This document shows, one piece after another, positions 18,971-48,136 of a stretch of DNA of 64,000 bases; position 1 is the stretch's first letter, and each line of letters opens with the position of its first letter. The DNA lies in NCBI GenBank assembly GCA_051362555.1, contig CM120644.1:22714534-22778533 (forward strand), read 5' to 3'. Made by a program: the position numbers and the translations under genes. The DNA comes from Lingula anatina (lineage: Eukaryota; Animalia; Brachiopoda). A model generated the notes under the pieces. It searched no databases and was not told the origin of the DNA. It saw nothing but the letters and a program-made list of their open reading frames with translations.

Positions 18971-19102
18971 ATGGATCAGCATCATCTTGACCAAATAAGC
19001 AAGAATCGCCTTGCCCTGATTCAATATATGAAACCTGATCCAGTTGTAGATTATCTGTGCCGGACAAAAGTTCTTTCCGCTGAAATGGTGGAGCGTATTA
19101 AG
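18971..19102 (+). CDS. CARD-ANK-protease gene, coding exon 1 (CARD N-terminal half)
   Basis: MDQHHLDQISKNRLALIQYMKPDPVVDYLCRTKVLSAEMVERIK resembles CARD helices 1-3. Donor AAG|gtaggc, phase 0. A candidate 5'UTR intron lies at 18793-18859. Confidence 0.8.
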
Positions 19103-19365
19103 GTAGGCCAGCATAAGGTTATTTTAACATTGAACGGAACAGTTTTCTGTACATTATCACGTTTGACTGATAGCTGACAATGGGAATTTATTAAGCCTTT
19201 CCATAAATAGAAAATAAAAAAATGAGAACCCATGACGATTTTAATGTTAATAATCAAACTGTTTTCTTTTGGGAGTTTGTCAGACAAGGTATTGAGAGAA
19301 ATGTTTCCTAGTGGTTGTATTTAATCATTCAGACTTATTTGAAATACATTATTTTTGACATCCAG

Positions 19366-19468
19366 CTTCAAAAGACAAAGGAAGAAAAAGTGAAGACAAT
19401 TATTGACATGGTTCAAGGAAAAGGGATTGCTGCTTTTGAACAATTTTGCAACGCGCTTATTGAAACAG
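19366..19468 (+). CDS. CARD-ANK-protease gene, coding exon 2 (CARD C-terminal half)
   Basis: Acceptor tttttgacatccag; LQKTKEEKVKTIIDMVQGKGIAAFEQFCNALIET matches the CARD KGxxAFxxFxxAL pattern. Donor G|gtgagt, phase 1. Confidence 0.8.
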
Positions 19469-20373
19469 GTGAGTTTGTTTTATGTCAGTATTTGATAAAA
19501 CTAAAAAATGTAACCGGATGATATGATATCAGATGGCATAGATTTCTTGCCAATTGTTATCACATGGGTCTCCCGAGGTGGGGATTAAGTAGAAATAGTC
19601 TGATGTGGAAAAGTGGAAACTGTTATTTAGTGATGTTCCTTAGGATATGCGGCCAATGGATGCAGCAGCTTCTCTTATTTCCTGTGGCCATGACTATTTC
19701 ATTGCACTTCGTAGGATCTTTACAATCTTCCTTGCAACACCAGTGGGCAGTGTTGCATGCGAGGGATCATTTACAGCCCTCCGTCGTCTGAAACTGTGGA
19801 CACGCACAAGCATACGTTTGTAAACAGGTATACAGCGGAAACATAATTACAACTAGGCCTGTAGCGTTTGTTGGAGGGAAATCCCCTTCTATTGTAAAGT
19901 CATCTGACATTTGTCGTGATTAGAATAAATGAGCAGGTATTAATGGCCAAGACAAAAGCAACACCCATCTAAATTCTTATATTTTCATACATCAATCGCC
20001 AACAAAGTAAAAGTCCACTAAGATATCTTTTATATTTTATCCCCGTAAAATTGGGCACTAATCCTTAGAAATACAGTTTTGAGGCCTCACATTTGGCAGA
20101 AGTTAAAAGGGTCCCCAAGGAAGGTATTTCAGTGCAATAAGATCGAATTATGTGAAACTACACCTTGCCGCACTTGCCAGGTGCTTAAAATATGGCACTT
20201 AAATCAACGAGGACATCCTTTAGTTTGTGCGCCCTCCGAGACTCGTATCGACCGGGCCTGTTCCTGTAGGTCAAATTCAACTTGAATGACGTCACGATCT
20301 CTAGCCGCCGCCATATTGGGGGTCCGGAACAAAGCGCGTGGGCAGGTAGCGCGGTTGCGGGCTTTGAATTAAA

Positions 20374-22000
20374 ATGCCTTCGTTTTGTGCTGTTTCTGGC
20401 TGTTAGAACAGGGGAAATCAAGAAAATGATCGATCATACTACAGGCTACCAAAATTAAGTTATAACACACAAAGGTGACCAGACTAAGGAATTATCGCAA
20501 GCAAGGCGTGATAAATGGTTATCTAACATCGGTAGATCAGACATCAAATAATCAAGCTATGAACACATACATGTGTGCTCAGACCATTTCGTAGGTGAGT
20601 TTTTATTACACGGAAAAGGATAATTTAGTTGTATCGTTTTGGGGAAAGTACCAGAGTGGAGTGGAGTGCTCAACTTCTGAGCTATCGAACCAAGGTAGAC
20701 CCTGGCCAGTCACTACATGTACATGGTGTAGGGAAATGCTATGTTTGGAACTACGAGAAGTTATATTTCTCAATAATTTTAGTCTAGTGACAGAGTTCAC
20801 ATCATGTAAGCATACGGTTTTGAAAGTTATAGTAGCATGCACTTGAAATGCTCAAACTCGGTCTTTTTGCTTGTTATGATCCACAAAAAAGAAACAACAC
20901 GAGGCAGCAACTGCATTACTTGATTTACAGAAGTCTGGAGAAGTAGCTGCAACTTTCGAGATGACTACAAATGTGGAGACTGGGACAGCATCTCAAAGTA
21001 CTGTCGACATGAAGCTGTATACAGCCATGGAAGAGGAAATAATGAGACTTCAAAGTGAAAATGCCGAACTAAAAAAAGCTTGCAAGGCAAAACAATTTCA
21101 TATTGACTTTTTTTGAAAATGACGCTGAAAAAGTAAGAAATTACACTGGCCTCCCAAATTACCCAGTTCTGAAATCATTGTATGATTATGTTGAGACTGA
21201 TATTATTCTCTACACAAGAGTGTTTTGGATAAATTTCAACAATTGATCCTTGTTCTTATGAAACTGAGACTAAACCTTGCAAACCAGGATTTGGCCGTCA
21301 GATTTGGAGTTTTTGATAGTACTGTTTCACGAATATTTAGAAGCATTTTGGGAGTATTGTTTGTTCTTTTGTCACCTCTCATTCATTGGCCTGAGAGAGA
21401 GCAACTGAAAAAAACAATGCCAATGAGTTTTAGAGAGCATTTTGGTACAAAAGTTGCCGTGATTATTGATTATTCTGAAATGCCTATGGAATGTTCATCT
21501 AACCTCAAAGCAAGAGATGAAACTTGGTCATCTTATAAACACAATACCACAGCAAAATATTTGATAGGTATTGCACCTCATTGAGTGATATGTTTCATCT
21601 CAGATAGGCATGGCGGCAGAGCTAGTGACAAAATAATTAAAGAAACTTGTTGTTTGCTTAATAAGCTTTTGCCAGGGAATGTAATTTTAGCAGATAGAGG
21701 TTTTGACATACAGGATAGTGTAGATAGCATGTGTGAACGGTTATACATCCCAGCATTTACCAGGGGTAAATCACAGCTCGGAGCTTTAGATGTTGAACAA
21801 ACGAGGAGGATAGTCAACAGTAGAATACATGTTGAGAGATTGATAGGCGTTGTTCGGCAGAAGTATTTAATATTATCAGCAAAATTACCTCACGATTTTT
21901 TACACCAGGAAAGGGTGATGACACACTTGTTATTGACAAAATTGTTAAGGTTTGTTGTGCATTGTCAAATCTTTGTGATTCTGTTGTACCATTCAACTGA
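20374..22000 (+). pseudogene. THAP-HTH-DDE (Harbinger/ISL2EU-family) transposase
   Basis: MPSFCAVSGC...RRDKWLSNI...HVCSDHF (THAP); LMKLRLNLANQDLAVRFGVFDSTVSRIF (HTH); [46 protein letters not shown] (DDE). Stops and frameshifts present. Confidence 0.9.
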
Positions 22001-22072
22001 AATGGATAATTTATTCATCATATGGCAAGAAACTTTTTATCACAAATGCACATTGCACATTTAGATTGCACT

Positions 22073-22077
<5 letters not shown>

Positions 22078-22134
<57 letters not shown>
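22078..22134. repeat. (TA)n microsatellite
   Basis: Directly visible. Confidence 0.95.
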
Positions 22135-22137
<3 letters not shown>

Positions 22138-22504
22138 AGCAGACTGCTGCATGACTGACCATTTTTTACAGAGATTGTAGAAATACAAGCATTAAAACAT
22201 CTACTTTAATAGCATGCTGGAGTTGTACTCTAAGTAAAACTATTTTTCTCCTATGGTTATTCAATTTAGATTGCATTTAAGAATCTTTGTAGAATCACAT
22301 CTATAAACGGGAATAAAAGTGAGTATTATTTGAACCTTGTATTGCTTTATGAATCATGTCAGGCATACATAAAATGACTGCTGCATGGCTGAGCCATGTT
22401 TTTTTACAAAAAAAAAAAAGAAATTCATACAAATGATAAAACATCCACAGTAATATTGACATCATACTGCAGCTGTACTCTAAAACTAATGATGTGCTAT
22501 TTTA

Positions 22505-24078
22505 TTATCCATTGAATATAGCTTGCTTCTTAAGCTGTGTGCAAAGAAATAAACCTGCACATAATTCAATTGCCAATGTTTGTATCTTAAAATGAAGAAA
22601 CATAGTTTTTCTACTGAGGATTCTTTTTTTTTTTCTCCTTTTCACAGCTTTTCTACAATCAGGACAGAACCATTTTCCTTTTGGCTCTCCCTTAATCCCC
22701 ACACACTTAAAGTGAAACCACTGAATGGCACAGTCCTTTGAATCGCAGCACACCATGCTCCCATGTTCCATATCCTTGCAGTAGCACCACTGCTCATCAG
22801 ATAACCGTGTATTTGTTTTGTCAGCAAGCAATGGCATTGGGGTTCTTGAAAAAAAAAAGTTTGCTACCAATTCTGGAAGTACTGCTTTCAGAAAAAAAAA
22901 TGCTAGACTTCATGTAAATTCCCTCCCAAAAACCAACACCAAAATAAATGTCCTCAACATGGAGATCTTGTTCAGTCAACACAACGAAAAACGCCCTCTC
23001 CAATTTGGCAACACCTAGCTGTGTCTGGACTGGTGGTCCCGTTTAAGTTTTAACTCTCCTCCCTTGTCCTTGACCAAATAAAAAAAGTCTTATCATTCCC
23101 ATCCAGGGTACTTTCCTTTTGCAAAAGGGACAGTTAACTTCCAAAATAGACTTTCCACAGCAATCACGTTCAATAATGCCATCTGGAGAAGCAGCAATGT
23201 AAGGGTAGTCTCGTGTCAGTATAAGTCCACTGTTCACTACCCTTATATTACTGTGGTCTTGGCTCATCTGCTGCAAAAAATCATCAACTGCCACACTTTC
23301 ATGACTACACCCCCATTCCATGGCGTTGCTGGAAAACTGCCTTGCCTGTGGATAACAGACCGTCTTTATCAGTGACATGGCTGGGCTGGCAGGGTTAGTT
23401 TTACATACCGATTTCATGTTCGAAGCAGTTATTCTCCCAGCACGGAAACGATTCCAGTGAGAAGTCTGGCTCTGGCGCTTAGTCACTGTCTCTACTTGTA
23501 GTACTTGCTCAACGGTTATTGTCAAACCTTCAAGTATGCTTTCACAGTGATCAATTAAATTGTTATATGCAAAGCCAAAAGTTTCCTTGTCCTTCAACTC
23601 TGTCAGCACTATGGGGAAATCTCCTTTTAATAACAAAGGGACAACATTTTCACAATATTCTGGCACATGGGCAAATATAGCCCGCTTTGATGGTGCCTTG
23701 CTGAGAGCATTGAAAAATCTGTCTAATCTTTCCTGTGTGGGAGGTAGTGTTGACGGCTGGGAACTGTTTTGGTTTGGGGTTGGTGGAGTTACTGGCTTGT
23801 CTGTGCATAAAGAAGTGCCAATTTATTTCAAGGAGGAGGCAGGTAAAATCAAGGTCCTTAAGCTTACTGTACGTGACACTTGAAAAGGGTGTTGGCAACT
23901 TCCAATATGCCTTCTCTTGCGTTACTTTTTTTGGTATCCCTGATCTTAACTGCAGCTTCCACAAAAATAGGAGTGTTGCAACATGGGTACAGGTTTCACC
24001 AAGTCCTGCCATACAGTTGCAGTGTCCTGTAATTACAGTCGCAGAGGACTGTCATTAAGGCACTGAGAGTGCAAGACC
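22505..24078 (-). pseudogene. Transposon second gene, exon 2: SWIM finger, YqaJ/lambda-exonuclease domain, PHD finger
   Basis: HCNCMAGLGETCTHVA (SWIM); QSQTSHWNRFRAGRITAS, WGCSHE, YIAASPDG, LEVNCP (YqaJ); WCYC...CCDSKDCAIQWFHFKCVG...WFCPDC (PHD). Acceptor tttttctttttag near 24079; frameshifted. Confidence 0.88.
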
Positions 24079-24950
24079 TAAAAAGAAAAATGGGCTTATT
24101 AATTAACATAGGGTTGATTTTAGGGATCAAGGTACACTGCACTTGCAAAACTGTGATACCACTTAATTAAATACCATTTTGTCAAATGGTGTCACAGGCT
24201 ACCAAGCTGATAAAAGGCGACTGCTATTTGAATTAAAGGCAACTATTTGTAATTACATCTACCTGGAGAGTTACCTGTTTTTCACAAGACATCACTTTTG
24301 TTCAGATGTTACATAACCCATTTTATGTAATAGATAGACCCCGAGTCAGCGAGGGTTATGTGACACACACGAGTCTTATTTAGACTACGGTCCATGAACG
24401 GGTTATAATGCATTCATGCGAGACGTGCGGTTATGCGAGTTACACCACGTCCGAGTCTTTTGTTCTTCACTTACACCGTGGTCTAAGTTGTCAGAGACAC
24501 CAATAACCTGAATCTTAAGAACTGAGATAATATCTAGTTTGAAAACTAATAAGGAAGTCTCATTCTCAACTGCTTTACAAACACTTGCTTTAGCAAACAT
24601 TCTTATGTTTATAGAAATAAAAAATTCTGTGCTACTGACCCTTTTTCTTAAAAAAATGTTAAAAGAAGAGGACAATGCACATGCATGTCACCCATGTGTT
24701 AGATAAGAAAACCAGTTGGTAGACTGTGATAAACATTATCATTTCAATTCTACCGAATACCTCTGGTTCAAAAAAAAAAAAAAAAAAAAACACTGCATTC
24801 AAACTTAGCTTCGGTGCCTAATTATAAAGCTGTAATCTATTAAGATCGTGAGATACAAAAGAAAGTCGTAACGACCATCAGTCAATACACTTGACAGTTA
24901 CTGTATATGTTGTTCACTATTACTAACTCACTACTAAATTTCTTACCTTG

Positions 24951-25229
24951 TATAGAAATCCCTTACGCTAATCAACTCTAGCTCCGGATATTTCTACTAA
25001 TAATCTGCTTACCTTAGCAGTAACGGAATCCCTTTCCTATAGATAACCACTAGAAATCAGGATTCCAACCTCTATCTCAATCTTGCTTCACAGTAATGGC
25101 GTCGCCCTTTGTTCTCAGTGCTCCTCGCTGTAAAACCACTCCTTACAGCTATCGAGTTTCTCGCAAACTGACACTCAGCCTCGACTTGGAATCGAGGCCA
25201 AGACAAGCCACCGATGCCGGATCACTACA
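24951..25229 (-). repeat. 3' LTR (279 bp)
   Basis: Matches 34884-35162 with two substitutions found by eye. Preceded on the minus strand by aaagtggggaggag (PPT). Confidence 0.95.
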
Positions 25230-25432
25230 CTCCTCCCCACTTTATCTGGATTGGAGGTAGCCATTACAATCCAACACCAACAACACGCTCTTACGATCCT
25301 TGTATCACTACTCGATCAGCCCATGCTAACCCAGCCAAGGAATCCATACACGGTACTCAACACTAGGAATACTCCTTCCCAGCATCTACTCCTGAGCAGG
25401 TCGTACCCCTCCTGGCCAGCTTCTTGGTGTTT

Positions 25433-25996
25433 TTACTCAACACTGGGCCCCAGTCGGTCTAGATATAACCGACGCCCATTCTCCTCGATGATCTTGAGAA
25501 TATCTTCCCAGTCACACCCACGAATTTTTGCGACGACTTCCGCTACTTTCCCCAGGAAAGCTGGAGTGGACTTACTTCTCTTCAGAAATCCGAAGTAGGG
25601 GGCATCAGTTTCCAGCAATAACCTGCCAGCAGGCATCCACTGTAACATCTCTATTGCTCTCCTACTCCTCGACGTATCCGTATACGTCCTGAAGATGGCA
25701 GTAGTTCCAAAGTAGGAATTGGGAAAATACTGTACCCACTTCTCTACCATCCTCCTTGACCCCGTGAAATAGTGACAGTGAAATAACTGGTCACTTTTCA
25801 CATTCTCAGCTAATCTAAGAATGTTCAAAACATGTCTCCAAACCAGATCACCAGCTGAGTCATCCTTGGGCCCTCGACAGTGGAGCACCAGTACCTGGTC
25901 TTCTCTTAATAATGTGAGAGCTCTTTCCAGGACTTCAAACTGAGCTTCCCACTGCCACGATGAGGTAGTGTAATCTACACCAGTCTCACCTACAGT
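25433..25996 (-). pseudogene. TatD-family nuclease, C-terminal part, inside the LTR element
   Basis: VGETGVDY, LVLHCR, HCHYF and RLLLETDAPY are the TatD metal-binding motifs. The N-terminal part lies beyond the repeat X insertion. Confidence 0.85.
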
Positions 25997-28900
25997 CATA
26001 AGATTATGTATGTGTGCATTTATTCCATCTAACGTAAGAAGATTAGATACAATTATAACGTCAGAAAATACAATAGAGGGAGTGTGATAATGATAGGGTC
26101 GCTAAACGAATTTGACGGAACATAGTGACTAGCCTAATCCTCTTGTCGCCTGGTTAGGCACGCCCCCTTAGAGTACTTATGTAAACAAAAGGTCTTCCAT
26201 AGAGAACTATCCTTTTGTTCAACAGCTTCGCGCATGCAGCGGATTATGTACCGGTATATAGTGGCGCTATACAGCTAAATGCAGTTAAATCTGTGAAAGC
26301 TGTTATTTAATTTATTCTGCTGTGTCGGACGTTGTGGGCCAGTCCAATGGTTCATTCACTCATTCTTTTCTGAAGATTGGTGATGCATATTTTGAATGCT
26401 TAATTATTTGCCCTCCTTCTAACAAGAGAAAGTAAAAGGGGAGAGAAACAGAGACAGTGTCAAATAAAAAGTGTAAAGAGTAATATAACATGCTGTACAA
26501 TGACTGAGTCGTGAAGGGGGTATTGGACTTCTTTGCGTTAAAAACAAATTCATTTCGAAATCAAAAGAGCATTTTTTGAAGGGCGCGTGGGGGGGGGGGG
26601 TAAATAGTAACTCATTCCGTAATCCTTCTTGCACATTTATTTAATCGTATCAAAATGTTTGATACACAATGTTCACTAGTATCATAGTTTTGGCGATTTA
26701 TTAAAACCATATTTGTACAAAGTAGGTTAGCATAAGTTACACAAATGTAGGCAAAAACCAGTGTGAAGAACAACTCCCTTTTTAAGTGAGGCAAGACAAC
26801 CTATTCAAACTGATTATAACCTTGATAAAGACACAAGGCAAAGGAGTTATGTAAACTAGCGTGTGAAAACACATTCTTTGTCAATGTTACAAGACAATGG
26901 AGGCGACCAAGTGGAGTAATTACAATATACCCCTGTACAGTCAAAGAGAAATTAGTTATGAAAGCTTACTTCGGGTCAGCCCTTAATTTGCTTGTTCGAA
27001 AGAAAGAGATGGATGTCGCAACGCGAATCCTTTTATTAACCCTTCATGAGTTTGTGTTAAAGTGTGAAAAACAGGCAACGATCTCGAGTCGCTATTGGTA
27101 TTGTTCGCATTTAATATTGGAGTATACGCCTACATGTAAACATCAGACAAGGCGTTGAGATCGATAAAAGTGGGGGTTTATCTGAAAAATTAGATGCCAT
27201 TTTTGTGAAATGACTTATCAAGTGATGTGCATGTACCTAACATGTATAAATTCTTGATTTTTATTATTTGAAACATCTTCATACACGGCCTCATATTTAT
27301 ATTTCTCTCAGGTCATACTCATTTTATTGTATAACATGGGACTCTAAAGCACAGGGCATTGTGAAAATCAATCTGCAAGGCTTGCTTTGACTTGATGTTA
27401 ACCTGGATTTAAAAGAAGAAATATAAATATGTTGGATGGATTAAATCACCGATACCGTTCTATTTTAACTTAACGTGGTCATAAAAACAGTAACACAGAT
27501 AAAGTTGTCTGTCATTCAGCACGCATTATAGGCGAGTAGCCAAACAGTGACTATGATCAATCCAAGTAAAATCTAGGCAAGTATTGTTTACAAAATAGAT
27601 CATGATGAATAAACCTACGCTTTAACGCTCAATGATATCAAAAATGATTCGACGCTTTAAAAATGGGCCGGTTCAAGGGGCATTTTTTGTTTCAGCTAGA
27701 GGGACTTCAGGTAGAGGATTCAGTGTAGGTGTTTCCTCGGATGATAGCAGCATCACACCCTAGGTCTTAGCGAGTTGACTAGAAGCTTTTTGTCTAAGCA
27801 TCCTATTTCTGCTACTAATCTAATAACTCTTAACCTCAAAGGTTTATGCGGTAAAAATATTTAAACTAAATGAGGTGCATTGACAGAGGCACAAGTACAA
27901 TCCAACGCCAACGTGCAACAGGGGAAAGTCTGACAGTGTATTACATAATATATGAAAGTGCGGTCAATATTAACAGTGACATCAGTTAAAGAGGAGGGGG
28001 TCTTACCATCTTTTGTTAAACGCGACTGTTATTATCTCTCGAACAAGCTTAAACCATGCCTTATACAATTACTGTGTCTCCGGCTGTCGTGCAGAAACGG
28101 CATGTCGAACATATTTTGCTACAGTTACAAACAGAGCAAACTAGCGACTTGTTCTAGATCGCTCTAGTAGGAAAGCATAAGTGCGGCGCCCGGGCAAAAC
28201 AATCAACTACCCGGTCTAACATTCATATCTTAGCGTTTACATAGGTCGCGCAAAGAGCTAAGTACATATGACGCGCAGGGAGCTAAGCAATTAGCCTTGA
28301 CAAAGTGGTCCGTTTTTAAACAACAACAAGAAAAAAGAACGCCTTGTCATAGTTATGAGACAAATCGCTTGCAACGTGCAACAAGGGGGGTGGCTGAAAG
28401 TGTGGTCACACTACATGTTTATGAAAGTACGTTGAATCAAGGAGTTATAAGTTATGGCCCTGATAATGGGTTGACACTCACCGCGTTAGCTGCGACAATG
28501 ATTATTTCTTCACAGCGATTTATTCATTCAATTATTAAATCATAATTTATTTATTATTTATTAATTTAATTTAATGATTTAAATCATCTAATTTTTATCT
28601 ATTTTTTATTTGATTCTTAATGTAACCTAATTATTTACTTTATTCTTTAAATAATATTTTTATTTATTTATTTATCAAGCCCGTAGCCAGCAATTTTAAA
28701 GGGGGAGTGTCTTTTTCTGAAAAAGTGGACCTTTTACCGAAAAATCCCCATGTACTTATGTCAAACTTTACCCAGAGTGGGCCTTTTTTAAGCAAAAGGG
28801 TTTTTTTTTTTCGATCCTCCCGAACTCCCCCTGGCTGTGGGCCTGTTTATTTATTTATTTATTAAGACTTTCTATTATTATCCTTTTACGGATTCGCTCT

Positions 28901-29579
28901 ATTATTTTATATAAAATGTAACTTAATGTAGTAATTGAGGCAACACGCCAGCTTGTAATGTGAATAAATTGTTTTAATAATGTTTCTTTCTTTGTTATCT
29001 CTAAACAGTAATGTATTTTTACACAGGTAGCGATGATGGAAATTTGTGTACGCAGCATCTTTAAACTTTTTGAGACGGGGTGATTTGTTGATCATGCTGA
29101 TGTACGATGTTGATGCATGTCTATCAAATTCAATTTTTGACAACAGAACACTTCATGTTGAATTAAAAAACTGATACTAAATTAAACTAGCAGTTTTCTT
29201 GCAACACTTAAAACATGATCAGCTGCGTGTGCCAAGCTAGTGAACAAAAGGATAGGTGGCCACGGGAGTATAATCCTATCGCCGCAACAAACAATGGGCA
29301 CTTTCTGGCTGATGTATCCTGCTGTTAATTACACCTAGTCACAGCGGATTGTCGCGCTCGCGCTAGACCACAGAAACAGGCGTCATGGGGTTCACTCGCC
29401 TAAGGTATTGTGTGTTATTACGTCTAAACTATTGTGTTTTGGCGTTCGAATTTTGAAGGGATTAGACGGCTCTCCATTGTTTGTCCGCCCCCTTCTATTC
29501 ATAGTATAGGGATTAAAACCTTTCTGACGTTTTTAAAACGTCGTACAACGGAAACTTAATTTTTATTACTACTGTAGAA
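25997..29579. mobile_element. Unclassified interspersed repeat X, copy 2 (~3.6 kb), inserted in the TatD ORF
   Basis: Similar to 13800-18021. Removing it rejoins NPEVS to AVGETGVDY on the minus strand (junction uncertain by a few bases). Confidence 0.75.
28676..28845. mobile_element. Small MITE (hAT-like CA..TG ends) inside repeat X
   Basis: caagcccgtagccag versus reverse complement of ctggctgtgggcctg; flanked by (ttta)n, so TSD length is ambiguous. Confidence 0.6.
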
Positions 29580-29700
29580 CAGACACCTCCGGGTTGCTTA
29601 CTGTCTGTTCAAACTTCGCCCAGCCCTCTGGGTCAAACTCGTGTCTGGGGTGCCAACCCACCGACACTACGGCTCCCTCTGCCTTTAGAGAAGCCACCTC
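29580..29700 (-). pseudogene. TatD-family nuclease, N-proximal fragment
   Basis: AVVSVGWHPRHEF...FEQTVSNPEVS: the GxHP motif that precedes the GExGxDY motif in TatD. Confidence 0.65.
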
Positions 29701-29701
29701 C

Positions 29702-32049: not shown

Positions 32050-32156
32050 CTCTGGCTCAGGTGTGCTCTTTTCTGCTTCGGATCCAATTTTTCGAGCCTT
32101 ATCATCAGCTTCTTTGACGTCTGATCTAGCGTTGTCTCGGATCGAGGATAGGCCCC

Positions 32157-34620
32157 CTAACTCGACCCCTTGGCGTTTCCCTGATTCGCCCCTGAGACCT
32201 TATCTTGTCTCTTTTCCGAGGCATCACCCCATCTCGGGCAGTCACGGATGCAATGTCCCTTTTCCCGGCATTTAAAACAAGTCCCATCCATAGGTCTACT
32301 CACAAACTTGGACCCATTTTCTGCCTTTGGCGACCCACTTTTCTCGATCTCCTTCTTTTTCGCATCCAGTTGTAGAGACTTAATAGATTTCTCTGTATTC
32401 TCCATGCGCTGGACCCACTTGGACATATCTGGATTAGGAGGTGTTTTTCTTTTTCGCATCCAGCTGTAAAGATTTAATGGATTTCTCCATGTTCTCCATA
32501 CACTGGACCAACCTGGACATCTCAGGTATTCCGGCCGTCGCTACCTGATTTACTCTCGGGTTTCCCTGACGACCCCTCCTTGGCACCGTGTGTTCTATCA
32601 CCTGGTACATTTGCTGATGCATCCTCAACAAACTCACTGCCTCACGAACAGTTGGAGGACTCCGCATATAAATAGCATGCCCCGCCTCCTTGTCCAACAA
32701 ACCAGCACAAAACCGATTCACCGCCTGCATATCAGTGAATGATTCCGGCAAGCCCTCGTAAGCACGACCTGCCAAAGTTAACACACGATCAGCCCAGTCA
32801 TCTAACGACTCTTTAGACTCCTGAACTGAACTCTAGAAACGCGACTGTGCTGTAGCTGGCGTATCCCGCTCTCCGTACCGTTTCTCCAGTTCATGCAGCA
32901 ACACTCGGTATGTTAGGCCACCTACCCGCTGACTCAGTATAGCGTAGTAATCCTGAGCTTTTCCCCGCAGGCACCAACATAACCCATCGAGGGACAAGGC
33001 ATCATCCCACTGTTCACGAACTGCATGTCTGACAAATCAGCTCTTAAATGCAGTCCAGTTACCATCAAAGACTAAGTTCTTTAGTGGGTTAAACTTCCGT
33101 GTTGGGGCGCTAACTGTAGATCCCCATCCACCATGACTCCTATGTTCACCATCGTGTCCTCTATTAACACCACTGTATCCTCCCTGGACACCACGATGTC
33201 CTCCATGGACACCTCTACCTCCGACTTCCATAGAATAAGAAGCCTCATTAGTAGGAACTGGTTCCCAGGGTACATCAGCTCTCCTCTGAGAAATGACTGG
33301 AGCCTGGTATGGCCCCCCACATTCATATACTTGAGTGCTGATACCGGTAACTGGTACTGGTTCACCATGGTCCGGTCTCAACCAGTCTTGTCTTAATGGC
33401 TCTAGACCCCGACCACAGTTTTCACGATTCGGTCCACCATGGCTCAGTGTAAATTCACCTGGCAGCTGTCTACCATGCATATAAGCATGGCTCGGTCCAT
33501 AGTGATCTAGTGTGACCTGGTCTGGCTGCCACCCTGTTGGTCTGACATCTCGGTACAGTCCACACTGGTCTCGTGTGACCTCCCTTTGATGCTGCCCGCT
33601 TTGCATACAAGCAAGGCTCGGTCCACACTGGTCTCGTGTGACCCCACCTGGCTGATGCACATTTTGCATAAAAGCAAGATTCGATCCACACTGGTGTTGT
33701 GTGAACCCACCTGACTGCTGCCCATCTTGCATAAAAGCAAGACTCGGTCCACACTGGTCCCGTGTGACCACACCTGGCTGCAAAGTTACATGTCTGACCC
33801 CACTAGTCGGTCCATCTTGGCCTTGTGTGAATGGACCTGGTTGATACACTGCACCATAATTTTCATGACTCCCTCGGGTGTAAGCTGGGACTGGCTCTGT
33901 TTTCCAGTGTACAGTAGCCTGTCGCACTTGGCTGGTTCCTGTCTTCCATCCAGGTATACGCATATCCTGAGTGAATGGAATTTTCACTTCAGTGTCATCA
34001 CCATGCCCTGGATCCTCGGGAATAGGAGTTATTCCCCACGGAATTTTACTCAACGGCCCTTTAGCTGGCCCTCGAGATTCCTGTCTGGAACCCACAAGAA
34101 TCCCCCCAGGTGCCTGATTAACACCTGCCTTTTCCAGGTTTACATACCTCCTATGTAACTCGTCTCCAGTCTGTGTAGAAACCACCGTCTGCACTGAAGT
34201 GGAGACCATTTCCCTCATCCCCTCTCCTGTCTGTACAGGCGTGGAGACCAAACGCCTCTCGTCAGCCCTTGGTACCTCACTCAAGGGTGACCCAATGGGT
34301 GTAGAAGTCCATAAACACCCAGTCCCGAAACCCGAAGAATTACTGGGCTCCCTTGACACCATTTTCTGATCCGCGCTGGTGTTATCTCCAGAGGCTTGCT
34401 GTACTGTAGAGAGGGCAGTATTAGGAGTAAAGTCCAATAACTCCACCACATCATCCGTCAACTTCTTCCGAGTTATTAGTTGTAATTACTCCCTGGTGAT
34501 TTGTCCACCATTTTGTCTCGCTGACACCAAAGTTTCAGCTATTTTGTCACTAACACCCGGTATTAGTGACAGCTCCTGAACGTCAGCCGAGTTGACTTTA
34601 ATGACATGTACATTCTCCAT
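32157..34620 (-). pseudogene. Gypsy gag: N-terminal HhH, long spacer, capsid-like region, CCHC knuckle
   Basis: ATG at 34620, one in-frame stop at 34486-34488, then ORF 33037-34461. FDGNWTAF and FCAGLLD segments; CFKCREKGHCIRDC knuckle in 32157-32459. Confidence 0.85.
33430..33780 (-). repeat. 60-bp coding tandem repeat in gag (~6 degenerate units)
   Basis: 20-aa unit GVTRDQCGPSLAFMQDGQQS with variants; cggtccacactggtc recurs at 60-bp spacing. Confidence 0.8.
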
Positions 34621-34883
34621 ATTTAATATCAATATATATAAAAATGAAGAACACAAACGACTATAAATATATCTTTATTGAAAATATATAAATATAGCCC
34701 CCTCTAGAAATAATGCACCCACAATTTAATTGTTACTTGCAAAATTTCTACAAAACAGTAACGTCTGCCTAAGCAAACCGCTGAATAAACTAGAAAAACA
34801 GCTATTTGTGTGAAAAAACAAACAACTACTCGTTTTTTAACTTTTATTCAGCAACGTGAGCTCGATGTTTTCGCTGCCACTAA

Positions 34884-35162
34884 TATAGAAATCCCTTACG
34901 CTAATCAACTCTAGCTCCGGATATTTCTACTAATAATCTGCTTACCTTAGCAGTAACGGAATCCCTTTCCTATAGATAACCACTAGAAATCAGGATTCCA
35001 ACCTCTATCTCAATCTTGCTTCACAGTAATGGCGTCGCCCTTTGTTCTCAGTGCTCCTCGCTGTAAAACCACTCCTTACAGCTATCGAGTTTCTCGCAAA
35101 CTGACACTCAGCCTCGACTCGGAATCGAGGCCAAGACAAGCCACCTATGCCGGATCACTACA
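34884..35162 (-). repeat. 5' LTR (279 bp)
   Basis: See 3' LTR; minus-strand termini TGTAGT...TCTATA. Confidence 0.95.
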
Positions 35163-38100
35163 CTTGGCTGTTGTTACACGTTTTCCGTCGATTTCTACCG
35201 ACGCCAAATCCCTGGCCCATCCTGACACAAACTGGTTGTGGGCATCCAAACCCTTGTAACATTTTAACTGGTGTGGTGTGTATGGGCTTGGTTTGAATAG
35301 ATGATAGTTGACTATGTCTGTGTATATAACTCTGGGCAGTAATTCCACATCGCCGCTCGACTCCGTTAATTCATACGGGCCTTGCCCTTTCAGATGACCC
35401 AATTTCTCTTCATACCGAATTTTCTCCGCCTCTTGGAGCCCCTCTGAATATGGTAATAACTGATTTTCTTCGCTGCCAACAGATAAACTTGTGGATTTCG
35501 TGTTTTTTACTCGCAGTCGCTTATATTCCACCACCGGTGTAACATGAAAATCTGACTCCCATGAAAATGTGACTCCCCAGTCAGATTTTCATTATGAAAA
35601 TGTGACTCCCCAGTCAGATTTTCATAATGAAAATGTGACTCCCCCCATGAAAATTTGACTCCCCCTCCACAAAACTTCATACATCTTATTTTATTTGAGT
35701 ATATGATTGTGATCTTGTTGTATGTAAAATGGATGATACGTTGGCACATTTTTTGTAGTTTGCAGTGAAAATTTTAATGAAAAAATAAGAAAATTAAAAA
35801 TGAGCACATAATGAAAATCTGACTCCCCCATGAAAATTTGACTCCCCCATCATAAAACTTTATAAATCTTATTTTATTTTGGGTTTATGTCTGTGATCTT
35901 GTAGTATGTAAAACGGAGGATACATTGGCACATTTTTTGTAGTTTGAAGGTGAAAACTTTAATGAAAAATAAAGAAAATTAAAAATGTGCACAAAATGAA
36001 AATCTTACTCCCCCGTGAAAATTTGACTCCCCCATCATAAAACTTCATAAAACTTATTTTATTTTGAGTATATGACGGTGATCTTGTAGTATGTAAAAAG
36101 GAGGATAGATTGGCACATTTTTTGTAGTTTACAGGTGAAAAATTATGTGAAAAAGTAAGAAAATTAAAAATGTCCACTTAATCGCCTATTGTCTCCCCTA
36201 TGAAAAAGTTATTTAATATTTGATGATCATTTCATCACCTTTTCTTTTAGGATACTTTATGAAAAATATATTGGAAATATTTAAATGTTTGATGATAAAA
36301 TAGTGAAAGCATGAAAAAGAAATCATGAAAATCTTTATTTTTACACCCATGAGATTTGGACTCCCATGGAGAAAAGGACCTATTTTATATTCAGTCACCA
36401 TACCACTGTTTTCCACATTTTTTGCATAGAGATGGATATTTTATCAGCATTTGAAAGTTTGATGATGAAAATTTTGGTCAATATTTTTAAAACAAGTATC
36501 CGTCTTTATTCTTGTAGGTTTTGCACTCCCATGTCAAAACACTACATTTTTAACACAAGAAATTGGCCCCATCGCCTTTTTTTTAAATTCTTCTTATATA
36601 GCATACCCAACAAAACACTTGCTTTTGTTTTCCCATTATTTTCCCCAAAGCTGGATGAAAGATGGGGCTTAAGTAAGCAAAAAGGATAATAAGTATGCAT
36701 TCTTGCGCCCATAGGACTTTGACGACCCATCTTACAAATCAAATGTTTCATATTTAATATTTTTCCTTTAAGCTACGACATATGAATAAGCTACCACCAA
36801 ACATGTCACAGTCCTATCACATTTGAAAGTTTGGTGGTGATAACTTTTGTCAAAATTGAGAATTTTTTAGCAGCATTATTCATATGTTGGTGATATTTCC
36901 TTACTATTGTGTTTTTAAATTCCAATATGATTTTTTTAGTTAAGGGGCAAAAGTATTTTGATTTAGCCTAGTGTGCAAAGTAATCATTAAGTTTTCACTG
37001 CCACAAGGGAAAATATTGAAGAGAAGCAGAATTTTCTTGTCTCAGTGGATCCTTTTTACATTCATCTACATTTTGTTGATACTGTATGCACTTCATTGAA
37101 AAAATATTCTTTTCTGATATGACACAAAACAATTTTTATTTTCATATAGCTTAGTGTGCAGAGTTATCATTATATATACAATGAAAAGTATGAGGAAAAT
37201 AGTGATATAATGACTGAATAAAAAATAATTGTCCTTTTCATGGGTGTAAAATAAATATGATACTGAATTTCTCACTATTTTTAAATTTCAAACACAAAAT
37301 TTAAATATTCCACATATGTTCTCCATAAGAAAACTAAAAAGTAGAAACATTTAAATGTGTGCTAAATATGAAATAAGTGCTTTTAACTAGAGGAGTCAAA
37401 ATCCTACGGGTACAAGAATGCAAATTTATTATCCATTTTTCATTTATTTTCACGCAGTATTTTACCATAAAACTTTTTAATATTTCCAATAAATTTTTTC
37501 ATAAAGTATCATAAAAGAAAAGTTGCCAGAATGATCATCAAACATCAAATAAATAGCTTTTTATAGGGGAGCTATTGGGTGTTAGAAAACAAATCCTTAA
37601 TTTTTCTTACTTTCATGTGTTTTATTACTTTTTTCTCTCAATTTTTTAACCATGTGCACATTTTCAATTTTCATTATTTTTTCATTTAAAGTTTTCACTG
37701 CAAACTACAAAAAATGTGCCAATGTATCATCCATTTTCCATACTACAAGATCACAGTCACATACTCAAAATAAAATAAGATTTATGAAGTTTTGTGGAGA
37801 GGGTGTCATATTTTCATGGGGGAGTCAGATTTTCATTACGTGCACATTTTTAATTTTTTTCATTTTTTCATTAAAATTTTCACTGCAAACTACAAAAAAT
37901 GTGCCAATGTATCAACCATTTTACATAATACAAGATCACAGTCATATACTCAAAATAGAATAAGATTTATGAAGTTTTGTGGAGGGGGAGTCAAATTTTC
38001 ATGGGGGAGTCAGATTTTCATTATGTGCTCATTTTTAATTTTCTGATTTGTTCATTAAAATTCTCACTGCAAACTACAAAAAAATGTGCCAATGTATCAA

Positions 38101-38495
38101 CCATTTTACATACTACAAGATCACAGTCATATACTAAATTAATTAGAGCTTAATGCATGTTTTTATGTAGGGGAGTCAAATTTTCATAGGGGAACCACAT
38201 TTTCATTATGTGCACATTTTTAATTTTTCTCTTTTTTTAATGAAAATTTTCACCTGCAAACTACAAAAAAATGCCAATGTATCATCCATTATGCATACTA
38301 CAAAATCATAGTCATTTACTCAAATAAAATGAGATTAATGAATGTTTTTTTGGGGGGAGTCAAAATTTCATAGGGGGAGTCACATTTTCATTATGAAAAT
38401 CTGACTGGGGAGTCAGATTTTCATAATGAAAATCTGACTGGGGAGTCACATTTTAGGGGAGTCAGATTTTCATGGTACACCGGCACTGCCGCCAT
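35163..38495 (-). pseudogene. Transposon second gene, exon 1, interrupted by a Ginger1-like element
   Basis: ATG at 38495. Removing 35538-38483 gives MAAVPVVEYKRLRV...RYEEKL...DIVNYHLFKPSPYT...YKGLDAHNQFVSGW...TTAK in one frame. Confidence 0.8.
35538..38479. mobile_element. Complete non-autonomous Ginger1-like element, family A, with satellite-like TIR arms
   Basis: CCGG TSD (35534-35537, 38480-38483); termini TGTAACATGAAAATCTGACTCCC / GGGAGTCAGATTTTCATGGTACA. Arms are built from ~187-bp tandem units in inverted orientation. Confidence 0.85.
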
Positions 38496-38567
38496 CTTGG
38501 ATTTGTGTGTGGCCCCCAGTATGGCGGCGGCTCATTAATTAGGTCACGTGTCGGGTACGCTCTAAAA

Positions 38568-39654
38568 CCGTCTAACTTTGCACACGGCAAGCACGTGTAT
38601 CTTCAGGAGAAAATGTTCTTTGATAAGCAAAAAATACAAAAACATTGGGTATACCTTTTTCTTTTAGAAACATATTATTTATTTTTCACTTTACATATCT
38701 TTATTACAGTAAATGAAATAAAATAAAACAGAATTAAATCTGTTTTACGTTTCATTCTGGTCTGCTGACATTCAACTGCAGATTCATTGCGGAGCAGTTC
38801 TATTTGATTGACGGAAATCTAACGTGGCTGCTGTTCGTCAGAGCTTAGTAAAAGTGACTCCCAGGTATATTTGATATTTATCAAGCTAACTTTTACGTTG
38901 CTCTGACACCCAGGGTACGTCTACCGTGTATTAAAACAAATCCTCTCACTATTCTCGTCAATCGTCTATCTATTCTCGTCGATCCTGTAACGTCACTTCA
39001 TCATTCATCGATCAATCGCCAAAGGACGCTGCGGTAGCAACATGTGCTTCTGGCTGTCAATCACGCGGTATTTTTTTAACTCGGCCAGCCATGGTCAGGG
39101 TTGGAAACAACTAGAAAATAATGTTCATCCAACCGAATAGATTTTAATTATTTATTAAATATAGAAATTGTTGAGAAAATGTTCTTATTTCACTAACAAA
39201 CTGCATTCCGTAATCGACAATTATCTCGTTGTCTGCCATTTTGATAGTCATGTGATAGGCCACTGTTTAATACACCGTAGAGGAGAAATGTTTGACAATT
39301 GAATTGGCGAAAACCGATGCTGAATTTATAGGTTCGCTTAAACTTGAAACTGAATCGATGGAAAGGCAGTGAATCGATGAAACATGACGTCGAATTTTTA
39401 CCCTTTTGGTCGCCCATAGTAGTGAATCTGCAGTTGAATGTCATTAGAGCAAAAAGAAACGTAAAACAGATTTAATTCTGCTTCATTTAATTTTATTTAC
39501 TGCATTTAAGATGTAAAGTGAAAAATAAAAAAAAAAAATGTTCCTAAAAGAAAAATATATATCCAATGTTTTTGTATTTTTTCTTATCAACAAACATTTG
39601 CTCCTGAGGATGTAAACACAATACACGTGCATGCCGTGTTCCAAGTTTGACAGG
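38568..39654. mobile_element. Non-autonomous DNA element with ~210-bp inverted arms
   Basis: 38568-38790 is the reverse complement of ~39420-39654 (cacggcaagcacgtgtat / atacacgtgcatgccgtg; cagaattaaatctgttttacgtttc / gaaacgtaaaacagatttaattctg). Confidence 0.8.
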
Positions 39655-40244
39655 TACATGCCAGACACCACTATAAAGACTGCGCAATGGCTACACCAAA
39701 ATCAGTTGTTAAAGCAGAATGTTGCTTGTGTTGTGGCACTGACCTTCGACTGCAATATGTTCCTAGTTCAAACTTCAAACTCCGCTTTAGCCACTTTGCT
39801 TCTTGTCTGGTCTACACGAGATAACGTCAGAGCAAGGCGGAAAAGACAGCTCCAGGCAGTCAAAACTGTGACGTACGAGACTTATGACGGCAAAATATGG
39901 AGCTCCAGGTGGTTATAGCTCTGACGTACAAGACTTGTGACTTCCAATTATTGAAGCGCCCCAGGGAAAATATTGACAAACACGCCCCCAATCCGCCGCT
40001 AGTGGCTAGAGTTTCGTATGATTGATAAGGGTAATATATGAAATCAGGACTGAGCTGGTAATACGGAAATCTAGAACCTATGGTTGTGGATACAGGCAGT
40101 CTAAGTTCGCAGTGTAAATCTGGCTCCGTTTTTAAATCTTTACTTTCGTAACAATTGTATTAAGAACCCACTTTTAAGTCTGATTGCATGCATTCAGTTA
40201 GTGCACTGCGATGGAAATAGCCTCTAGGGATTGAGTCTGCATGC

Positions 40245-41166
40245 TTTTCACTGCAAACTACACAAAATGTGCCAATGTATCAACCATTTTACATGCTACA
40301 GGATCACAGTCATATACTCAAAATAAAATAAGATTTATGAAGTTTTGTGGCGGGGGAGTCAAATTTTCATGGGGGAGTCAGATTTTCAATATGTGCTCAT
40401 TTTTAATTTTCTCATTTGTTCATTAAAATTCTCACTGCAAACTACAAAAAATGTGCCAATGTATCAACCATTTTACATGCTACAGAATCACAGTCATATA
40501 CTCAAAATAAAATAAGATTTAAGAAGTTTTGTGGCGGGGGAGTCAAATTTTCATGGGGGAGTCAGATTTTCATTATGTGAACATTTTTAATTTTCTCATT
40601 ATTTCATTAAAATTTTCACTGCAGACTACAAAAAATGAGCCAATGTATCAACCATTTTACATAATACAAGATCACAGTCATATACTCAAAATAAAATAAG
40701 ATTTATGAAGTTTTGTGGAGGGGGAGTCAAATTTTCATGGGGGAGTCAGATTTTCATTATGTGCTCATTTTTAATTTTCTTATTTGTTCATTAAAATTCT
40801 CACTGCAAACTACAAAAAATGTGCCAATGTATCAACCATTTTACATGCTACAAGATCACAGTCATATCCTAAATTAATTAGAGATTAATGAATGTTGTTT
40901 TTTTTTGTAGGGGAGTCAAATTTTCATAGGGGAACCACATTTTCATTATGTGCACATTTTTAATTTTTCTTTTTTTTTATGAACATTTTCACCTGCAAAC
41001 TACAAAAAAGTGCCAATGCATCATCCATTATGCATACTACAAAATCATAGTCATTTACTCAAATAAAATGAGATTAATGAATGTTTTTTTTGGGGGGGAG
41101 TCAAAATTTCATAGGGGGAGTCACATTTTCATTTTCATTTTAGGGGAGTCAGATTTTCATGGTACA
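40245..41166. mobile_element. Right arm only of Ginger1-like family A (about 5 tandem ~187-bp units)
   Basis: Same unit as 37650-38479; ends catggtaca followed by ccgg. Confidence 0.85.
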
Positions 41167-41270
41167 CCGGGACATTTTCCCTTTATTTGACATGTTAACA
41201 TATCAAATTTTACCGAAGCGCCGATTGTTTCAAAAACGAAATAAAAACACAATGGTTTATTTAGGCTTAA

Positions 41271-41594
41271 GGTAGATGGGTCGTTGCATAATTTGAAGAT
41301 TTGCGCAATTCTTCAATAGTTTCTAACATACATTTTTTTTTTTTTTTTTTGAAAAATTGAAATGTAATTGGATGCCTCTTTACATAAAAGAGAAATATTA
41401 AAAAATAATTCGAACGTTAAAAAACCATAATGAAATTATGCTTCACTGAAAAATCAACAATTTTCCCATTGATTTGAATGGGGACTAGTGGGTTATGCAA
41501 GGTGTAACTTTCTTTTTTGCAAATTTTAACGTACTTAGGTGTCTCTTCAGACAATTTTTTTTTGAACGTTGGAACTTGTAACGTCCGATCTACC
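41271..41594. mobile_element. MITE with TTAA-like flanks (Kolobok-like)
   Basis: ttaa|ggtagatgggtcgttgca versus tgtaacgtccgatctacc|tcaa. Confidence 0.55.
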
Positions 41595-41826
41595 TCAAAT
41601 GTCCATCGCGTTAAAAACTTATATAGTCATGCAAAGTGTGACAATCGTGCATGTTTTATTCCCATGTGACCATATGATCAGTCGGGCATCGGTAAAAATA
41701 GGCTTGATTTTATTTATTTTTATTTTCTTTTTTGGCCATTTCGGCGGAGTTTGAGAACAAAGTAATTAAACTATCTGCTACAAATTTTATAATTTCTAGA
41801 TCACTGAAATAAAACTTTTTCCCTAG

Positions 41827-41961
41827 GACAACGGCACATTGTAGAACTAATATGCCCAGAGCGTTCTCAAACTCATGATGAAACTTCTAGTCACAAATCA
41901 GTGATAGAACAGGCGTCTGGGAACAGGAATGATGAAGAAGATGGAGAAAAACTCCCTGAAA
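41827..41961 (+). CDS. CARD-ANK-protease gene, exon 3a (end of CARD helix 6 plus acidic linker)
   Basis: Acceptor ttttttccctag; 135 nt, phase 1/1; (G)QRHIVELICPERSQTHDETSSHKSVIEQASGNRNDEEDGEKLPE; donor gtcagt. Confidence 0.7.
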
Positions 41962-42293
41962 GTCAGTAAATATATCATCTTGTCTGTCAACTTGGCCTAG
42001 AGTGTATGGTTTGTGGAATGTGTGTCAGCTGGATACAAAAAGTAATTTTAAGACAAGTTCACTGAAAAGAAAATCAATTTGACACATTCAAGTGTCGTAC
42101 AATGCTTTGACAGATGCTCCGTGTGCCTATTAGTATTTCTTGTTCAAAACGACTTAAGAAGCAATAATTGCTACCATATCTTCTATTATTTTGCTTCTCT
42201 TTCGCTCAAAATCATAAAAAAATAATGGCTTATTAAAAAAAACACCAATTTTCCCATTGATTTGAATGGGGACTAGTGCGATATGCAGGGTGT

Positions 42294-42358
<65 letters not shown>

Positions 42359-42756
42359 TGCTATAAAATGTTCTGTAGATACGCATCCGATACTAAGGTT
42401 TGAATTCTATTTCAACATTTTCACTGGCAATTCTGGTTTTTGAAAGCTATGGGCAATGCGTGACACTGTTGAGTTTTGCGAAGGAGTTTTTTTATTTTTT
42501 ATTTATTTATTTATTTTTTTTTTTTTGTGTTATTGCATTTATCATTTTGCAGATCATTACTGTCTTTGTTCAATAAAATTTCTTAAGTCTTAAGTTGCTC
42601 CTGAAGTAAAGGTATATTTGATACCAGAAACATGACTGTGCAAAACATTGCTGTATTGTTATAAAATTGCTAAATGTGTCGAACATTGTTATTGCATATA
42701 ATCGCATATGGCAGATGACAAGTCCGAGATTTTCAACGTCTATCTATTTATTACAG

Positions 42757-44486
42757 ATGCTGTGCTGCATGACCACGCCAAGCTGTTGGAGGGAAGAATC
42801 CATGGAGAATATACAACCGAGGATGCCTTGAGCTTATTGCCAACACCAACAAAGAGTGCCAGGTTCGAAACTGTGCAAGTGTACACAGGTGATATTTCCT
42901 TGCGTGGTGGAGGAAGTGATTTACTTTTAGCTGCAAAAAGAGATGACGATAAGGGTTATATGAGTCTTATATATGAAGGGGCATATGTCAATTTACTGGA
43001 CAGTCAGGGTAGGAGTTATTTACATTTAGCTGCAGAGAAAGGCCACAAAAACGTTGTCAAATCCCTAATTGGCATGGGAGTTGATGTCAATATACAAGAC
43101 AAGGAAGGCAGAAGTAGTATATATTTGGCACTAGAGAACCGTCATGGTCATATTGCCACCATGCTTTATGACGCAGGTGCTAAGCTGTCGGATGAGGGAG
43201 ATCTTGTACCCAGTCCTGAGAAAACTAAAATGCGGTGCATCATTCAAGAGAAGGCAGATGGTTTGGCAGAAAAACACGACAGTCTATGCGCTATGTACAT
43301 TTCTCGCAATAAGAATGGTACCAAAGAGGTGCCCTATTTTGAGATAACTTGCAATGGCAAAGAGGGAAAAGAGGTGTTCCCCAGCCAACTCGCGGGATAT
43401 GCCGTTCTTGTTAGGAAAGGCTCAGTCATTGTTTCCTCTGATAAAGGACAACCCGGTGCAGTTGGAGGATTGTGTGAGCTATTTTTAGGTTGCCCTGTGT
43501 TAGGTTCAGCTGGCAAACGTGGAAGTCTTGGAGTGTTTACGAATATATCAGTAGAAAAGCCACGAGGCGCATTCAAACCCAGAAAGACCAAACCAAATTC
43601 CTTTTTAACTTGCTATCACGTCTTTGGGACCTATAAAGATAAGGTTGGCTCTCAGAATAGTACAGAATGGGCAATTGATATCCCCGTTTCCGTTAATGAT
43701 AAGGAATGCGGTAGAGTATGCCATGGCTGTTTAGATAATTTCCACTGTGATGGAGAGCTATTTGGAATAGACGCAGCACTCGTTGGTCTTAGTGACCAGG
43801 CTTCAGCGAACTTAACTCCCAAGCTTCCAAACTACCCAAATATGGGAGTGGTACCATTTGGAAGCATTAAAACCTTGGATGTTTATAGATGCGACCGGAC
43901 AAAAGCTGATGTTCATAAGTACGGGTTTGTAACAAAGCATTCAAAAGGACAATTAGGCTTCATTCACATGCAATGTCTATTTTCTAAATTCTATTTTCTA
44001 TTCGCGGTGTGTCTTATGATCACGGTCTGTGCCCTGAATATCCCGCGGCGTAATTACTGGCAGCGCGAGCCAGTTACTATAAGTTACTATAAGTAACTGG
44101 CTCGCGCTGCCAGTAATTACGCGGCGGAATATTCAGGGCACAGACCGTGATCATAAGATAGCGCGAATAGAAAATAGATTTTTAGAAAATAGACATTCCA
44201 TGTGAACGAAGCCTTATACAGGAATTCCTCATTTGTCAAAATCCATGATGGTAAATGTTTGAAGACTTTCCATAGCATGATAGAGATGTTGAGCCCCTCT
44301 AATACAGAATTTAACGTGGAAAGAGATCCTGGTGCTGCTGCTTTTTATTAAAGAAAAGGGCGTGCACTACATAATAGGATTGGTTGTTGCAAAAATTACA
44401 AGTAAGAAACCAGGTCATCCCAATAAAACTTGCTCAGTCCTATGCTGAAGGCACTATCTGCTGAGATTCATACTTATGTTAAATAA
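42757..44486 (+). pseudogene. Exon 4a: ankyrin repeats + trypsin-fold protease domain (unit 1), disrupted at the 3' end
   Basis: Acceptor ttattacag is in frame with ORF 42708. About 3 ANK repeats (GRSYLHLAAEKGHKNVVKSLIGMGVDVN); FLTCYHV and GIDAALV. MITE at 43956; GDSG replaced by RDPG (44322-44333), followed by a frameshift. Confidence 0.85.
43956..44213. mobile_element. Fold-back MITE with TTA TSD (PIF/Harbinger, Tourist-like)
   Basis: 258-bp near-perfect palindrome ggcttcattcacatg...catgtgaacgaagcc; tta at 43953-43955 and 44214-44216; absent at the homologous site in unit 3. Confidence 0.92.
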
Positions 44487-47998: not shown

Positions 47999-48136
47999 GA
48001 CAAGAGTACCTTGAATCCCGAATGTTCCCAGATTTTTATTCCCAAATTCAAGCTGAAACTACTAGGCCCAAACCAGTGATAGAACAGGCGTCTCGGAAGA
48101 GGAATGACGAGGAAGATTATGACAAACTCAGTGAAG
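47999..48136 (+). CDS. Exon 3b (paralogue of exon 3a)
   Basis: Acceptor tttttcactag, 138 nt open, phase 1/1, (G)QEYLESRMFPDF...VIEQASRKRNDEEDYDKLSE, donor gtcagt. Confidence 0.55.

Follow-up and report, generated by a model that had tools for sequence, protein, structure and literature searches.

Organization of the locus

The 64-kb stretch of Lingula anatina contig CM120644.1 analyzed here, which we call the window, contains four decayed tandem copies of an ankyrin-protease gene together with a single pair of exons encoding a CARD, and none of the copies encodes an active enzyme. The locus is a pseudogene array that records one more architecture of a NAL1-type protease family, and fast turnover. 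The original prediction had been of a working hidden gene, with a CARD, a linker, ankyrin repeats and a trypsin-fold serine protease in a frame that ran to 44486; all copies carry lesions, and neither the working gene nor the full frame is borne out.

Exon 1 (18971..19102, plus strand, 132 nt) begins with an ATG, contains the first half of the CARD and ends at a GT donor, and exon 2 (19366..19468, plus strand, 103 nt, AG/GT ends) contains the second part. In a Pfam scan, exon 1 covers positions 4-40 of the CARD family PF00619 with 31.2 bits against a cut-off of 23.9 (E = 2.3e-7), and exon 2 covers positions 42-73 of 85 with 21.9 bits (E = 1.8e-4), which alone is below the cut-off; the profile positions run consecutively from one exon into the other. 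Only one copy of these exons is present within the window. A word-index search with exon 1 matched no relatives, which is weak evidence, and neither exon matched the PADLOC defense-system models, so that any homology to them would be distant. The CARD opens the joined protein, which lacks a hydrophobic stretch at its N-terminus.

Comparison of the window with itself reveals three units that each consist of an exon 3 and an exon 4, starting at about 41.8, 48.0 and 59.1 kb (units 1 to 3). In unit 1, exon 3 (41827..41961, plus strand, 135 nt) encodes the predicted last CARD helix (GQRHIVELI) and an acidic linker. The open part of exon 4 (42757..43955, plus strand) continues with linker, ankyrin repeats (~42921-43187), a NAL1-type N-domain (~43212-43430) and the first part of the protease, with its His at 43617 and Asp at 43770. 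Exon 4 matches Pfam ankyrin families (E = 7e-12); the original prediction was right about both the CARD and the ankyrin repeats. Along its whole length, unit 1 is 42% identical to P0001, a Lingula anatina protein annotated 'ankyrin-3' (A0A1S3KHE), and it matches the family profile with E = 4e-60. The protease motifs GSLG, FLTCYHV, GIDAALV and VHxYGxVT are present as first reported, with GDSG in unit 3 only.

A fourth copy, unit 0, is a heavily decayed remnant of the exon for ankyrin repeats, N-domain and protease, recovered on the plus strand at 18091..18379 by tblastn with P0001 (18091-18159, E = 9e-5; 18148-18264 and 18329-18379, E = 0.001) and 82% identical to unit 1 over 56 nt by blastn. 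With a remnant of the same family so close before exon 1, the CARD exons fall within the array.

Decay of the array

The joined reading frame of unit 1 runs for 569 residues and meets its stop at 44096, within an insertion of 261 bp in all, made up of a 258-bp element with a near-perfect inverted repeat (43956..44213, no strand assigned) and a TTA target duplication. We take the element to be a miniature inverted-repeat transposable element (MITE), presumably with Harbinger affinity. It is missing from units 2 and 3, and in unit 1 it adds 46 foreign residues, including a hydrophobic stretch, before the stop at 44094-44096. The element is very high-copy, with very high summed depth in the DNA contigs of runs X2 and X3, and it is abundant in RNA reads that stem from elsewhere. 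Behind it lies the protease remnant of unit 1 (44214..44486, plus strand), which reads RDPG (44322-44333) at the position of the unit 3 GDSG and carries two frameshifting indels, a 1-bp gain near 44343 and a deletion at 44431. The catalytic serine is lost, and with the stop at 44096 the CARD-linked unit has no full triad.

Unit 2 (47999..51183, plus strand) comprises an exon-3 copy and an ankyrin-protease exon broken by 46-bp and 1-bp frameshifts, by stops, and by the loss of the serine loop in a 117-bp deletion. The 5' part of unit 3 (59141..61187, plus strand) has an exon-3 copy, ankyrin repeats (~60640-60921) and the N-domain (60921-61187); the start of exon 4 is missing, and a 40-bp deletion and a 1-bp loss separate the parts of the unit. 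Its protease domain (61190..61987, plus strand) is open and out of frame with the domains upstream, and it retains His, Asp and Ser at 61373, 61526 and 61808 (H62, D113 and S207 of the unit 3 frame). The sole copy linked to a CARD lacks the serine. Unit 3, which alone preserves the whole triad, is frameshifted, and the window contains no CARD exons that belong to it.

Segments 47465-49523 and 58611-60665 are 99% identical, and dN/dS among units ranges from 0.54 to 0.98. The 3' flanks of units 1-3 (44487-44698 and its counterparts) differ by 4-5%, and synonymous divergence in the coding parts is 8-20%; because the flanks differ less than the coding synonymous sites, their likeness suggests gene conversion or mosaic duplication. 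From about 44.8 kb the unit 3' flank enters a high-copy repeat.

We considered whether assembly errors lie behind the lesions of unit 1 and rejected this, since X2 contigs match them exactly. One X2 contig covers 44325-44558, RDPG codons included, with 0 differences and 0 gaps; X2 contigs also contain a 33-bp deletion and the empty insertion site of unit 2, and exon 1 is identical in X1 contigs. Contigs of X3 enter the insertion by about 23 letters on each side, the threshold for bridging being 31. X1 and X2 agree with the window wherever they cover it, which makes assembly errors an unlikely source of the lesions, although these two runs are perhaps not independent of the window.

Predicted fold and kinship of the protease domain

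The intact protease frame of unit 3 was modeled with AlphaFold2 at a pLDDT of 85.7. In a Foldseek search the best match was NAL1 (E = 7e-12), as were all of the first 15 matches listed. In VIA-align the model superimposes on rice NAL1 8pn2 with Z 21.7 and rmsd 3.3 over 230 aligned residues and on the Lysobacter L5 protease 5mrt with Z 22.5 and rmsd 2.2 over 187, effectively a tie. The family profile matches rice NAL1 with E = 2.8e-19, from inside the ATP-binding domain through the protease, the next family following at 1.4e-5; units 1 and 3 align over these profile positions too, N-domain included. Basic residues occur in the loop that matches the NAL1 ATP-binding loop, where the alignment is loose. 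The C-terminal domain is, on the basis of the model, a chymotrypsin-fold (PA clan) serine protease closest to rice NAL1, and nearer to it than to animal trypsins, as the original prediction of a NAL1/Ssy5-type His-Asp-Ser enzyme had it.

Sequence-based family models place the domain less readily. The unit 3 protease matches no Pfam family, and single-sequence and four-sequence PDB searches returned no matches. P0001 scores 12.6 bits against the NAL1 Pfam model, under its cut-off of 26.1, and passes that of PF08192 (Peptidase_S64) with 27.7 bits over residues 510-628, which span the C-terminal barrel only. Against PADLOC the protease gave a weak unrelated match, and P0001 matched ankyrin models only in NCBIfam and PADLOC. 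In the Atlas, the neighbors of P0001 are Nal1_C, S64 and trypsin clusters at 0.96-0.97, together with structural neighbor clusters from molluscs, one of which has HEPN_DZIP3 on 32% of its members.

Rice NAL1 (PDB 7Y77, 8PMG, 8PN2; NAL1_N PF25608, Nal1_C PF25819; PMC12012508) likewise has a two-barrel His-Asp-Ser protease after a small N-domain. The window gene differs in being animal, at about 17-18% identity, in having a CARD, linker and ankyrin repeats at its N-terminus, and in that all its copies are broken. With yeast Ssy5 and the S64 family (PF08192) it shares a predicted intracellular chymotrypsin-type protease; the long pro-domain of Ssy5 was not found in the window gene, whose own protease has no Pfam match.

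Word-index searches recovered P0001 as the only full-length relative; when the profile was run against 1.84 billion representatives, 47 matched at E 0.001. Among the 46 besides P0001, 36 match Nal1_C, S64 or trypsin models at E 0.01, and the sources listed for 30 are 4 Lingula, 14 bivalve, 1 bacterium and 11 without an organism name. The alignment includes 40 of the 47 (omitting P0039, P0041, P0046, P0047, P0051, P0055 and P0057); His-Asp-Ser is kept in 37 of the 40, and Glu replaces Asp in two, P0001 and P0056. A metagenome scan gave 47 pattern matches, none of them confirmed.

In Lingula anatina gene models, on which these architectures rest, the protease follows ankyrin repeats in P0001, leucine-rich repeats (LRRs) in P0014, Roc-COR in P0016, CARD-NACHT in P0021 and no recognized domain in P0015. 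P0021 (XP_013389014.1, annotated as uncharacterized) has an intact NAL1-type protease at its C-terminus in place of LRRs. P0001, whose first residues resemble an incomplete gene model, and P0021 belong to the same protease family and jointly hold CARD, ankyrin repeats and protease, neither having all three; the annotation names of both leave out the protease. By tree distance, the window copies are nearest to P0001 and P0014.

Literature searches on NAL1/S64-type proteases in animals, or with CARD or NLR domains, gave nothing relevant, although supplements or a Lingula immune survey may list such fusions, and the accessible parts of PMC11508797, PMC8662601 and PMC13475620 make no mention of such a protease. 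The original statement that the architecture matches no named family stands, and the sequence comparisons point to a branch of NAL1-type proteases in animals that is so far undescribed.

Probable joining of the CARD exons to unit 1

The four exons have GT/AG ends and phases 0, 1 and 1 and join in frame, confirming the boundaries first proposed (18971-19102, 19366-19468, 41827-41961 and 42757 onward). The exon 2-3 join reads ...NALIETG|QRHIVELI, and the exon-3 copies of units 2 and 3 keep both acceptor and donor. Using the P0021 CARD as template, joining at 41827 adds 11 points to the alignment, whereas read-through into the intron adds 0. Of the 721 open acceptors in the window this one ranks third, and it is the best of the 333 that lie at or before 41827. 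The joined CARD scores 68 against 27 +/- 5 for shuffled sequences, with 0 of 1000 shuffles reaching 68. A hand-made helix-6 pattern also put 41827 first, out of 719, and is not counted since it was written after the sequence had been seen. At the level of sequence the join has good support: the CARD exons are likely spliced onto exon 3 of unit 1, and exon 3 would contribute the sixth CARD helix, as predicted with the single template.

Two other outcomes for the CARD exons were considered and rejected. A CARD-only gene formed by read-through of exon 2 is unsupported, because read-through lengthens neither the Pfam CARD match nor the P0021 alignment. Splicing to unit 3 would give no enzyme, because that unit is frameshifted ahead of its protease.

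The RNA check of the junctions that had been proposed with the original prediction did not find them in reads. In runs X11 and X17, of which 6-25% each was read, exons 1 to 3 and the unit 1 protease core have zero depth. At 19468/41827 there are no loose read ends, the sole form in which this junction is detectable since the 22.4-kb intron exceeds the 20-kb mapping limit, in tables crowded with repeats. Because RNA reads are absent from the CARD exons and exon 3, the junctions remain predicted ones, read from sequence. Reads of X17 do cover the start of exon 4, the ankyrin repeats and the N-domain; wherever differences are listed they all diverge from unit 1 (13 of 13 at 43063), so these reads are likely from a diverged copy.

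Since the single CARD exon pair likely splices onto unit 1, the ancestral gene probably made a CARD-ankyrin-protease, a cytosolic enzyme that would be activated by CARD clustering and act in innate immunity or cell death. Besides the absence of X11 and X17 reads from exons 1-3, several observations weigh against this reconstruction. Two acceptors downstream of 41827 score equal to it or higher, in a ranking made with one CARD template. The window has no remnants of CARD exons ahead of units 2 or 3. In P0001, the closest homolog, an ankyrin stretch rather than a CARD precedes the same exon-4 boundary, and the Asp of the triad is replaced by Glu. CARD, ankyrin repeats and protease occur together in none of the 47 relatives, and a CARD was found in 1 of the 46 scanned. 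A quick tree groups the window with P0001 and P0014 at 96%, a careful tree leaves that clade unresolved, and both put P0021 with P0015 and P0016 in another Lingula clade.

Taken with the 22.4-kb gap and the missing junction reads, the lack of CARD remnants before units 2 and 3, the ankyrin sequence of P0001 and the count of 0 among 47 favor an alternative in which the CARD exons belong to another gene, either CARD-only or continuing into an exon beyond the window, the units had different 5' exons, and a CARD-ankyrin-protease never existed. We consider this unlikely. Read-through of exon 2 would leave the CARD unfinished, whereas exon 3 fits in phase and is the best of the 333 acceptors up to that point; the gap consists mostly of inserted DNA; and the family remnant just upstream of exon 1 places the CARD exons within the array.

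Predicted function of the ancestral protein

In the published account, rice NAL1 works only once it has formed a hexamer that a strand of its N-terminus closes, trimers being inactive, and it acts on the transcription regulators FZP and OsTPR2 (PMC12012508). The animal forms carry CARD, NACHT, Roc-COR, LRR or ankyrin domains at the end that matches the NAL1 N-terminus. Given that NAL1 must oligomerize, with its N-terminus closing the assembly, before it is active, the likeliest function of the family is by analogy that of a cytosolic protease gated by a CARD or an NLR. In the ancestral CARD-ankyrin-protease, the CARD would bring the enzyme to a CARD platform, clustering would complete the active protease cage, and the ankyrin repeats would select partners or substrates.

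The brachiopod relatives are joined to immune-sensor domains, for which reason the family is likely to represent an overlooked non-caspase immune protease. The immune role given in the original prediction gains support from the Lingula CARD-NACHT-protease, LRR and Roc-COR fusions, although the locus itself encodes no active enzyme. CARD-bearing initiator and inflammatory caspases likewise combine an N-terminal CARD with a C-terminal protease that is likely activated by clustering; the window gene differs in that its protease is a serine protease of another fold, QACRG is absent and ankyrin repeats are present. To our knowledge, the proteases recruited by animal CARDs are caspases.

In bacterial defense, CARD-like domains of gasdermin systems occur on trypsin-like proteases (PMC10312443) and bDLD-trypsin fusions are found (PMC8195603), and these likewise join a death-fold adaptor to a trypsin-like protease. 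The window gene differs from them in being animal and spliced, in having a canonical Pfam CARD and ankyrin repeats in between, and in that no linked gasdermin was seen in the window. Brachiopods are reported to possess NLRC, caspase-1 and gasdermin E (PMC11508797). Because of that report, gasdermin may be named as a candidate substrate only.

A further, tentative step, which we rate somewhat below an even chance, is that brachiopods and bivalves have a caspase-independent inflammasome-like arm in which NAL1-type proteases are wired to CARD, NLR (NACHT), Roc-COR, LRR and ankyrin domains. The trigger would be assembly of the protease cage by a sensor or death fold. If this is true, the arm would be an animal counterpart of the bacterial CARD-trypsin defense proteases, a second kind of signaling protease in invertebrate immunity that mirrors the bacterial death-fold/trypsin systems; the locus would record its CARD-ankyrin member, and XP_013389014.1 would be an NLR with a built-in protease. 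Intact gene models of the family exist in RefSeq, and the window locus is unsuitable as a test object.

We also considered that the gene is as reconstructed, with the CARD as a general scaffold, and that the family cuts in development or metabolism. The sole characterized structural relative acts on FZP and OsTPR2, as noted above, and most scanned bivalve members have no recognized extra domain, immune or other, which also weighs against an immune role. Ssy5 acts in nutrient signaling. Nevertheless, a single species has fusions to CARD-NACHT, LRR and Roc-COR, HEPN_DZIP3 domains occur in the mollusc structural-neighbor cluster, and the locus shows tandem birth-and-death; all three fit immune gene families and make a developmental or metabolic role improbable.

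It is more doubtful still that unit 1 remains in use as a 569-residue, protease-dead decoy of CARD, ankyrin repeats and N-domain, membrane-anchored by the insertion-derived tail and damping or scaffolding CARD signaling: the stop does fall in the last exon, both frameshifts lie in the 270 bp behind the insertion with none in the 1,569 coding bp ahead of it (chance ~0.02), and the tail reaches a Kyte-Doolittle 19-residue mean of 2.14, a value reached by 28 of the 1,143 stop-free stretches in the window, but both statistics were devised after the sequence had been seen, exons 1-3 and the unit 1 protease core have no RNA reads in the runs examined, and the dN/dS of 0.54-0.88 against the other units is not assignable to the unit 1 branch.

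Mobile DNA in predicted intron 2 and elsewhere in the window

Predicted intron 2 (19469..41826, plus strand, 22,358 bp) consists mostly of mobile elements nested in one another and of 185-bp tandem arrays. Mobile or repeat DNA makes up at least 17,582 bp (at least 79%), as summed from segments that we chose (transposase, YqaJ and PHD frames, the long terminal repeat (LTR) element and the tandem arrays). The LTR retroelement at 24951-35164 has direct repeats of 281 bp that are 99.3% identical and carries frames for an aspartyl protease, an RNase H and a gag-like protein; it also contains a TatD DNase frame (25433-26101), in a segment that matches 13.7-18.0 kb at 72-82%. This element apparently splits a DNA transposon (21201-24051 and 35145-35588) with a DDE_Tnp_4 transposase on the plus strand and PHD and YqaJ nuclease frames on the minus strand, a layout similar to that of ISL2EU elements. 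Near the start of the intron, a short repeat at 19680-19830 presumably resembles the C-terminal dimerization motif of a hAT transposase; RNA reads there come from other copies.

The 185-bp arrays occur in both orientations at 35543-41173 and 63732-63998, with partial copies near 4.5-5.0 kb. Outside the intron, fragments of LINE-type reverse transcriptase (LINE, long interspersed nuclear element) lie on the minus strand at 5395-7454 and 52038-53505, with an RVT_1 match at 6483-7454 and the remaining fragments judged by eye.

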